A DNA stretch of 64,000 nucleotides from a virus, in the IMG/VR virus record IMGVR_UViG_3300013426_000031; one strand, given 5' to 3'. Position 1 is the stretch's first letter. Each line of letters begins with the position of its first letter. The translations under genes were made by a program, and so were the position numbers. Of this stretch, positions 24,545 through 24,623 are shown in pieces. The notes beneath the pieces are model-generated. The model searched no databases, had not been told where the DNA came from, and was given only the letters and a program-made list of their open reading frames with translations.

Positions 24545-24623
24545 TGGCACCGGCCCTCAGAATCGAACTGAGACCATTTCTGATTTAGAGTCAGACGAGC
24601 TTAACCATTACCCTAGGCCGGAA
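24545..24623 (-). tRNA. suppressor tRNA, anticodon CUA (reads UAG)
   Basis: Acceptor CCGGCC/GGCCGG with unpaired 1-72, G73, CCA encoded. Anticodon stem TCTGA/TCAGA, loop CTCTAAA. T-arm CTCAG-TTCGATT-CTGAG. The unpaired 1-72, G73 and U35 are glutamine-tRNA-like. Confidence 0.75.

Follow-up and report, generated by a model that had tools for sequence, protein, structure and literature searches.

The window analysed here is a 64,000-nucleotide stretch of IMG/VR virus record IMGVR_UViG_3300013426_000031, about one third of a 184-kb phage genome, and nearly all of its genes lie on the minus strand. Among them is a tRNA gene with the anticodon CUA, tRNA(CUA), which stands in a genome whose open reading frames (ORFs) carry many in-frame TAG codons. 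On the minus strand at 24545-24622, ARAGORN identified a 78-nt tRNA with the anticodon CTA; it scores 48.9 bits with the Rfam tRNA model, whose gathering score is 29 (E=5e-10 locally). In the cloverleaf, the acceptor stem consists of six Watson-Crick pairs and a U1.U72 mismatch; G73, G10, U35, the anticodon loop CU-CUA-AA and an encoded CCA are also present, and the 3' flank is AT-rich. A first-pass annotation had proposed a CUA tRNA with an unpaired 1-72, G73 and U35 at this position, and both programs bear this out. It is the only CUA tRNA among the 10 tRNAs called by ARAGORN (all on the minus strand) and 4 further Rfam tRNA matches, each of which was checked. The "Pyl" tag attached to it was set aside, as this is merely ARAGORN's name for any CUA anticodon.

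The gene belongs to an RNA cluster that also holds a tRNA-Gln(UUG) and a full-length ROOL RNA (318 bits, 25453-26040) with two copies of the promoter described below. In pairwise comparisons with the other phage tRNAs, tRNA(CUA) had no clear parent and was not especially close to tRNA-Gln(UUG) of the same phage. Searching IMG/VR for exact patterns of its anticodon and T arms gave 0 matches, and the fetched loci of relatives stop short of the syntenic position. Between ROOL and the tRNA(CUA) promoter lies an ORF-free, locally GC-rich stretch of 688 nt (24765-25452, minus), for which we found no Rfam match and no significant fold (z=-1.2). Other tRNA-like matches on the minus strand include one of 95–98 nt with a very long extra arm (26622-26716) and one of 62 nt (47428-47489).

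Translation through TAG and the residue inserted

Reading TAG as a sense codon almost doubled the number of long minus-strand ORFs. Code 11 gave 12 ORFs of at least 300 amino acids (aa), a number that rose to 23 when TAG was translated and stayed at 12 when TGA was, and greedy non-overlapping ORF coverage was 65.2% (code 11), 82.6% (code 15) and 66.9% (code 4). The table-15 map contains 67 ORFs, of which about 36 carry about 112 in-frame TAGs; 49 end in TAA and 18 in TGA, the latter including the radical S-adenosylmethionine (radical SAM) genes #1 and #3. TGA recoding was rejected, as reading TGA as sense yielded just one chance in-frame merge. A permissive ARAGORN call of a tRNA(UCA) with a 58-nt intron near 44120 was likewise unsupported, with no TGA recoding in the ORF statistics; a 55-nt mini-tRNA match (Rfam 38.6 bits) is nested within it (44080-44220, minus).

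Several Pfam domains cross in-frame TAGs, namely Radical_SAM/Fer4_12/SPASM in two paralogues, Amidase_2, the C5 DNA_methylase and PIN_4 plus PhoH. The DNA_methylase profile covers residues 2-318 of 319 aa, with its TAG at codon 14. More than 6,000 homologues were found for radical SAM #2, a gene with 11 TAGs; the best span 100% of its length (E down to 1e-267), and homologues of 428–442 aa cover it fully despite these TAGs. Three observations exclude pseudogenes and assembly errors: flotillin occurs as an identical protein on 23 contigs, a 184,253-bp contig (ena:ERZ27300225:k119_102594) is 100% identical to the window across the 19.9 kb compared, and a 96%-identical relative conserves 22/22 of the compared TAGs without TAG polymorphism. 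The +4 context of the sense TAGs did not differ from that of codons in general (p=0.12), and the +4/-1 context gave no decisive signal. Overall, part of the phage genome is written in genetic code 15, and TAA and TGA terminate. This agrees with the first-pass annotation as to the gain in coverage and ORF length under table 15, the two remaining stop codons, the TGA ends of radical SAM #1 and #3, and the continuity of the radical SAM, C5-methyltransferase and PIN-PhoH frames. Its statement that TAG is sense was supported by ORF counts, coverage and domains but was too absolute, as the TAG at 10487-10489 is probably still a stop.

For the inserted residue, a first table of homologues showed Gln in 115/115 cases at five of the eleven TAG columns of radical SAM #2. 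This tally was set aside as circular: the homologues' contigs are themselves recoded (their stored proteins are not reproduced by table 11 translation), and the Q may be a gene-caller convention. We replaced it with a codon-level comparison and standard-code outgroups. For the former, the relatives L001 (86% identical) and L003 (66% identical) were used. Conserved radical-SAM columns in window/L001/L003 show, among other patterns, TAG/CAA/TAG, TAG/CAA/CAA, TAG/TAG/CAA and CAA/TAG/TAG, and CAG also alternates with TAG and CAA. Across 5,141 aligned codons in real frames, Gln codons make up 31/61 of the non-TAG partners of TAG (the runner-up residue has 5), and the commonest non-identical partner of CAA is TAG. 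As the change from TAG to CAA takes two substitutions, this exchange is not mere mutational proximity.

The outgroups gave the same residue. Homologues of the C-terminal domain of the 753-aa fibre occur in the cultured Faecalibacterium phage FP_Taranis, in Dulem virus 34 and in faecal contig MT835543. In these standard-code phages the motif AE.NYQ.QYDY(F/Y)K contains two invariant Gln (CAG/CAA), and the window and L001 have TAG at both positions. Just before CX3CX2C, the motif T(F/Y)QV has a Gln that is invariant in Erwinia phiEaH2, Salmonella STsAS, MT835573 and the window's two paralogues, and that is TAG in radical SAM #2. The PDB offered no informative outgroup, since the methyltransferase TAG column is occupied by a variable Phe in M.HhaI and the amidase had no match.

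The tRNA itself is also consistent with Gln. The bacterial tRNA-Gln identity set comprises a weak or unpaired 1-72, G73, G10, G2-C71, G3-C70 and U35, with the 2-71 and 3-70 pairs belonging to the E. coli GlnRS set. tRNA(CUA) has U1 with a weak or unpaired 72, G73, G10 and U35, and carries C2-G71 and C3-G70 in place of the other two pairs. Taking the TAG/CAA/CAG exchange, the invariant Gln of standard-code phages and the tRNA-Gln-like acceptor features together, we read TAG as glutamine, the assignment already made in the first-pass annotation. It is highly improbable that TAG stands for pyrrolysine, Glu, Tyr, Leu or Trp, or that the TAG-containing ORFs are pseudogenes or assembly artefacts: ARAGORN prints "tRNA-Pyl", several TAG columns face Glu or Lys in homologues and the 2-71 and 3-70 pairs differ from the E. 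coli set, but Gln codons account for 51% of TAG's non-identical partners against a Gln background of about 4%, TAG falls on invariant Gln columns, its Glu, Lys and Asn partners match the substitution spectrum of CAA itself, no pyrrolysine biosynthesis or PylS genes occur among the scanned ORFs, and the identical sequence on 23 independent contigs with 22 conserved TAGs in the 96%-identical relative excludes artefact and decay.

Uneven use of TAG and a shared promoter class

We expressed TAG use as its share of Gln-type codons (TAG+CAA+CAG), which is 19.5% overall and varies strongly along the window: 24% at 1–8.5 kb, 3% at 8.5–20.2 kb, 33% at 20.2–24.5 kb, 48% at 27.5–36.1 kb, 13% at 36.1–42.2 kb, 0% at 44.7–50 kb, 30% at 50–53 kb and 6% at 53–64 kb (chi-square 97, p=4e-18). 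Off-frame TAG showed no matching depletion. In some genes TAG constitutes 46–75% of the Gln-type codons. The TAG-rich genes are fibre- or virion-like (Mtd_N N-termini, tail-fibre PHROGs), radical-SAM enzymes and their Cys-rich neighbours, and a 453-aa gene. The TAG-poor block at 8.5–20.2 kb encodes flotillin, the kinase/phosphatase pair, a Metallophos protein, NADAR, a protein resembling the major vault protein (MVP), a DUF2828/DUF7788 protein that the first-pass annotation had called TROVE, and an SLH protein. Large TAG-free genes prefer CAG and have a higher GC content at third codon positions (GC3), with CAA/CAG counts of 1/22 for flotillin, 2/29 for MVP and 0/13 for GmrSD, whereas TAG-rich genes use CAA almost exclusively; TAG density correlates negatively with GC3 (rho=-0.52, p=4e-4). 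The L001 orthologues of MVP, DUF2828 and SLH, only 62–64% identical, are likewise TAG-free and CAG-preferring.

The pronounced unevenness had been noted in the first-pass annotation, and the structural, radical SAM and Cys-rich classes it listed as TAG-rich are so. The lysin, which it also listed, shows no significant enrichment (2/9 Gln-type codons are TAG; 3/8 in the holin-like ORF at 23-484; neither is significant). The small-gene block at 53–64 kb, described there as TAG-free, is instead TAG-poor, with up to six TAGs in table-15 ORFs, of which about three are plausibly in-frame. On the same contig, this block continues past the window with 21 more genes that hold 1 TAG against 64 Gln codons.

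A second feature follows this partition. TTGAAA-17-TATAAT, a near-consensus promoter of the sigma-70/sigma-A type, is found 13 times without mismatch and always on the coding strand (Table 1), compared to 0.15 expected, with three further plausible copies at one mismatch. Each copy precedes either an RNA gene or a TAG-free ORF, except for the one ahead of the kinase ORF, which has no TAG besides the junction codon considered below. The RNA genes are tRNA-Gln/Tyr, ROOL, tRNA-like genes and tRNA(CUA), and the TAG-free ORFs encode SLH, DUF2828, GmrSD-HNH, a PD-(D/E)XK-like protein, ORF 26749-27117 and an M28 peptidase. Promoter-proximal ORFs hold 1 TAG against 48 Gln codons, compared with 111 against 413 elsewhere (Fisher p=2.7e-4; p=0.015 at the gene level). 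At orthologous sites, L001 has TTGATT or TTGACT-17-TATAAT upstream of DUF2828, PDDEXK_5 and tRNAs, and in L003 the window-type motif precedes a tRNA, the 26749 orthologue and ROOL. The association between promoter and TAG-free genes is strong but not absolute.

The junction codon lies within ORF 9929-11110, which reads as an AAA_33 kinase, TAG, F-M-S-K and then a metallophosphatase. The phosphatase ATG is preceded by AAGGAG at a distance of 11 nt. Its nearest homologues (58–65% identical) are stand-alone proteins that start exactly at the junction Met, and remoter ones are fused. Two relatives with an identical flotillin were informative. In L024, a 1-nt deletion makes the kinase end in a TGA that overlaps the phosphatase ATG, so this ATG is a real start. 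In L026, the kinase frame closes with TAG, and GGAG plus a further 8 nt separate this codon from an ATG in another frame; TAG is therefore a plain terminator there. The TAG at the junction thus probably still terminates an early-class kinase gene in the window, judging from these alignments; its suppression would yield an in-frame kinase-phosphatase fusion in the window's strain. No further candidate TAG stops were found. A more elaborate idea, which we regard as tentative and rather doubtful, is that this TAG is deliberately bifunctional, an early stop giving the kinase and a separate phosphatase and a late Gln giving the fusion, so that the code switch would act as a dosage timer in one promoter regulon with ROOL and the phage tRNAs. 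A similar stop-NNN-ATG layout, which may be a coincidence, occurs at 5811-5819 (minus), where the TGA of radical SAM #1 is followed by one codon and the in-frame ATG of a Cys-rich protein.

Table 1. Features of the window, ordered by position.
Position	Strand	Feature	In-frame TAG	Remarks
505..1554	minus	Endolysin 3' part: CHAP C-terminal half and Amidase_2	2	
2855..4141	minus	PIN-PhoH protein	1	Codon 93, inside PIN domain
5817..7115	minus	Radical SAM #1, 432 aa	8	Ends TGA
7530..8489	minus	C5 cytosine DNA methyltransferase	1	Inside motif I
8534..20149	minus	TAG-poor block	3	Against 103 Gln codons; CAG-preferring, higher GC3
10487..10489	minus	Junction TAG, probable true stop		In frame with downstream ATG
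11294..11322	minus	Promoter copy		Upstream of kinase gene
18243..18271	minus	Promoter copy		Upstream of DUF2828/DUF7788 (0 TAG)
20219..20247	minus	Promoter copy		Upstream of SLH protein (0 TAG)
20250..24453	minus	Three fibre-like genes of 75, 956 and 272 aa	2, 7, 6	Directly downstream of tRNA(CUA)
24729..24757	minus	Promoter-like site TTGAAA-17-TATAAT		107 nt upstream of tRNA(CUA) 5' end
26109..26203	minus	Two promoter copies		Upstream of ROOL RNA
26304..26377	minus	tRNA-Gln(UUG)		Ordinary CAA/CAG reader, same RNA cluster; ARAGORN, Rfam
26419..26447	minus	Promoter copy		Upstream of tRNA-Gln/tRNA-Tyr
27151..27531	minus	Three promoter copies		Upstream of tRNA-Thr-like gene and TAG-free ORF 26749-27117
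27536..28864	minus	Radical SAM/SPASM #2, 442 aa	11	
30385..32646	minus	Tail-fibre-like, DUF6273-type C-terminal domain, 753 aa	17	68% of Gln-type codons
33974..36071	minus	Virion/fibre genes of 338, 71 and 285 aa	5, 0, 6	
45948..45976	minus	Promoter copy		Upstream of GmrSD-HNH (0 TAG)
48289-48317, 49509-49537	minus	Promoter copies		Upstream of tRNA region and TAG-free PD-(D/E)XK-like ORF
50068..53135	minus	453-aa gene and radical SAM #3	7, 3	Radical SAM #3: TAGs near N-terminus, ends TGA
53116..64000	minus	TAG-poor small-gene block	6	Against 92 Gln codons; several TAGs probably precede the true starts

A proposed translational gate and competing explanations

Early genes of large phages such as T4 and SPO1 use host sigma-70/sigma-A consensus promoters. 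By analogy, the TTGAAA-17-TATAAT class would be read by unmodified host polymerase, which would place the suppressor tRNA in the regulon of genes that need to be readable in the host code. A plausible mechanism can be outlined from these sequence features. Upon phage entry, host RNA polymerase would transcribe the promoter-bearing genes, which are readable with the host's standard code (one of them apparently still ending in TAG), together with the suppressor tRNA driven by the same promoter class. A host enzyme, either GlnRS or a non-discriminating GluRS plus GatCAB, would charge tRNA(CUA) with Gln, and the accumulating tRNA would outcompete release factor 1 (RF1) at UAG, such that the TAG-bearing mRNAs for fibres, radical-SAM maturation systems, lysin and the holin-like protein become translatable at full length. 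Recoding would then be a translational gate layered over transcriptional timing, and the extreme of a broader codon split between host-adapted genes (CAG) and phage-tRNA-dependent genes (CAA/TAG). The timing switch suggested in the first-pass annotation gains support from the shared promoter class and the conserved TAG-free state of diverged orthologues. We consider it very likely that the window derives from a ~184-kb gut Bacillota jumbo phage with partial code 15 in which recoding serves as such a gate.

Several observations weigh against this account. With a relaxed -35 box, a promoter copy falls ahead of a Cys-rich gene with 2 TAGs, both here and in L001. Read-through transcription is possible, as the TAG-rich fibre genes directly follow tRNA(CUA) and no terminator was detected between them. 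The lysin shows no significant TAG enrichment, unlike the published crAss-like and Agate cases, and TAG also occurs in genes that are not obviously late (C5-methyltransferase, PIN-PhoH, radical SAM #3). No release factor or aminoacyl-tRNA synthetase (aaRS), RF2 and GlnRS included, was found among the ORFs of at least 300 aa and the precomputed Pfam matches of flanking genes, nor any anti-RF1 factor, in the ~72 kb examined of the ~184-kb genome. Early and late classes were assigned only from promoter type and gene content, and the host and its genetic code are indicated only by Clostridia-level hints.

The strongest competitor is neutral codon capture, whereby CAA and CAG drift to TAG where this is harmless because the tRNA is abundant, and TAG is purged from genes translated earlier, making the pattern a by-product of timing. 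Free exchange of TAG and CAA between lineages at the same columns fits such drift, as do the correlation of TAG density with general AT richness at third positions (rho=-0.52 with GC3), the unenriched lysin and the ordinary +4 context of TAG. Drift sits less easily with genes in which TAG reaches 46–75% of Gln-type codons, far above the overall 19.5%, and with the recoding of the same gene classes in independent lineages (Borges et al., 10.1101/2021.08.26.457843). Drift and the gate predict nearly identical sequence patterns and are hard to separate in silico; on balance we think drift possible but the less probable cause.

An origin of the TAG-free genes as recent horizontal imports from standard-code bacteria, in which TAG has yet to accrue and which would imply no temporal partition, appears quite unlikely: their CAG preference and higher GC3 and the cellular type of many of them (flotillin, SLH, restriction-modification) would suit an import, but the diverged MVP, DUF2828 and SLH orthologues of L001 show the state to be old and maintained, the genes carry the phage's own conserved promoter class, and the AT-rich, CAA-using small-gene block at 53–64 kb and beyond is TAG-poor too.

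Neighbouring genes and relation to known systems

The endolysin is not made continuous by TAG translation alone, as had been supposed in the first-pass annotation. The N-terminal half of its CHAP domain ends ...SNCVGF just after the catalytic Cys (about 2031-1901, minus), and the rest of CHAP plus Amidase_2 resumes at about 1665-505 (minus), beyond a ~246-nt insert that folds far better than shuffled sequences (z=-3.7, 0/200). Rfam group I and II intron models found no match, and the insert is probably a self-splicing intron outside Rfam's recognition. The SLH domain assigned to the same lysin lies, according to Pfam, in a separate protein (19121-20149). Next to the lysin, an endonuclease-like ORF (2100-2860, minus) with several TAGs encodes two Cys repeats (W.C.C.CGN...SCGC) and a C-terminal FDF...IEFDGRxHF nuclease-like motif. 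It has an in-frame TAA where the sister repeat has TAG (WKCxCDCGN versus WFC*CECGN) and may be a pseudogene, or a homing endonuclease tied to the lysin insert.

The three radical SAM/SPASM enzymes are paralogous and fall within the regions 4980-7115, 27536-30332 and 51774-53135. A Cys-rich protein (4980-5813) lies directly downstream of radical SAM #1, and another (29757-30332) lies ~0.9 kb upstream of radical SAM #2, with two small ORFs between. The equivalent Cys-rich protein in L003 matches Pfam tSAM_targ_Cxxx_rpt, and the parent contig encodes an S-adenosylmethionine synthetase immediately before the window on its upstream side (L027 1-51). The arrangement suggests a phage-encoded radical-SAM protein-modification system.

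In the fibre region, three proteins (36615-39254, 40524-41048 and 36190-36549, minus) share a C-terminal LNGG/FNCG-type motif after a late TAG, and read-through of these C-terminal TAGs is favoured because the motif lies beyond them. Two proteins within 36190-42125 (minus), of 879 and 406 aa, stand out for an unusually high GC content (42%) and many Ala residues, and have only one TAG apiece. The DUF6273-type domain of the 753-aa fibre (30385-31300, minus; L006) is homologous to a protein of FP_Taranis annotated as a "DGR target". An origin of the fibre's C-terminal TAG cluster in a diversity-generating retroelement (DGR) was rejected, since the TAGs fall on conserved Gln and no reverse transcriptase was found among the scanned ORFs. 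ROOL lies ~5 kb from the TAG-poor block at 8534-20149 with its phosphatases and the MVP-like protein (major vault protein shoulder/repeat), and both ROOL and the block are conserved in relatives.

A megablast search with 24 kb of the window (20–44 kb) against 50,697 phage records returned no match, and tblastn of the radical SAM protein against deposited phages gave a best identity of 39%. On these searches, the lineage is not among deposited phages. The host is predicted to belong to gut Clostridia, as the fibre domain is common to Faecalibacterium phages and relatives of the SLH protein (30–37% identity) occur in Clostridia and Ruminococcus metagenome-assembled genomes. Along with these similarities, the probable TAG stop of an early-class gene hints indirectly at a host with the standard code.

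For annotation, the consequence is that a standard table loses or fragments about a fifth of the window's coding sequence, including the three radical-SAM enzymes, fibres and the lysin, and that an abundant phage group (at least 23 contigs from several studies) needs gene calling with table 15. The window also offers an unusually clean view of a mixed-code genome, where one promoter class marks host-code genes and drives the code-changing tRNA, and where a probable terminating TAG in a promoter-class gene would let both meanings of TAG coexist. The published hypothesis of a code switch as timer thereby becomes directly testable in a Bacillota jumbo phage.

The closest cellular counterpart is supE of E. 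coli (the glnV amber suppressor), a point mutant of a cellular tRNA whose CUA anticodon inserts Gln with partial suppression. tRNA(CUA) resembles it in a CUA inserting Gln, G73, a weak or unpaired 1-72 and G10. In contrast to supE, with its G2-C71 and G3-C70, it carries C2-G71 and C3-G70 and is encoded by a dedicated phage gene, and it would serve about 110 codons in the window alone.

Among phage systems, the Jade code-change module (suppressor tRNA, TrpRS and RF1; Borges et al.) likewise has its suppressor tRNA in a standard-code-compatible context beside recoded late genes, but Jade's recoded codon is TGA rather than TAG, and no release factor or aaRS accompanies the tRNA in the ~72 kb examined here. 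Suppressor tRNAs have also been linked to theta ribozymes (PMC10879173). As in that work, a gut Caudoviricetes genome with code 15 carries the suppressor tRNA, and the concentration-based switch proposed there fits the strongly promoted tRNA here. Unlike those tRNAs, tRNA(CUA) encodes its own CCA and has an AT-rich 3' flank, with no HDV-like or theta ribozyme found by Rfam at E<=1 locally or E<=0.05 window-wide (Rfam may lack a theta model).

The phAss-1 work extended code-15 recoding to a Clostridia-associated group (PMC10607447). phAss-1 and the proposed Phassvirus share with the present phage a large gut genome, many tRNAs, a tRNA-Sup-CTA, TAG read as Gln in virion genes, no dedicated aaRS (here within the ~72 kb) and a predicted Clostridia host. 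phAss-1 differs in size (133–136 kb, against ~184 kb) and has three Sup-CUA copies, against one seen here; megablast found no nucleotide identity of at least ~80%, the Phassvirus criterion, to phAss-1, BK046881 or BK025033. ROOL, the MVP-like protein, flotillin and three radical SAM enzymes are present here, and none of these was found in the text of PMC10607447.

Borges et al. (10.1101/2021.08.26.457843; published 2022) described TAG-to-Gln recoding with phage suppressor tRNAs in gut phages, among them crAss-like phages and clades infecting Firmicutes or Bacteroidetes, found it concentrated in structural and lysis genes and put forward the timing-switch model; the recoding was validated by metaproteomics (Peters et al. 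2022, PMC9523058). The phenomenon and the model are thus already published, and the present genome adds no new principle. What it adds is incremental: the promoter class shared by the suppressor tRNA, other tRNAs, ROOL and TAG-free genes, which forms a promoter regulon; the split between CAG and CAA/TAG codon use; and a probable retained TAG stop. It resembles those code-15 phages in its phage-encoded tRNA(CUA), TAG as Gln in genes of the structural and lysis regions, a standard-code-compatible gene set, low GC (33%), the near abandonment of TAG as a terminator, a presumed standard-code host and a model in which late genes would be switched on at translation. It differs from them in belonging to an undeposited lineage, in a lysin without significant preferential recoding, in having one probable TAG stop and in a partition that coincides with the promoter class driving the suppressor tRNA.

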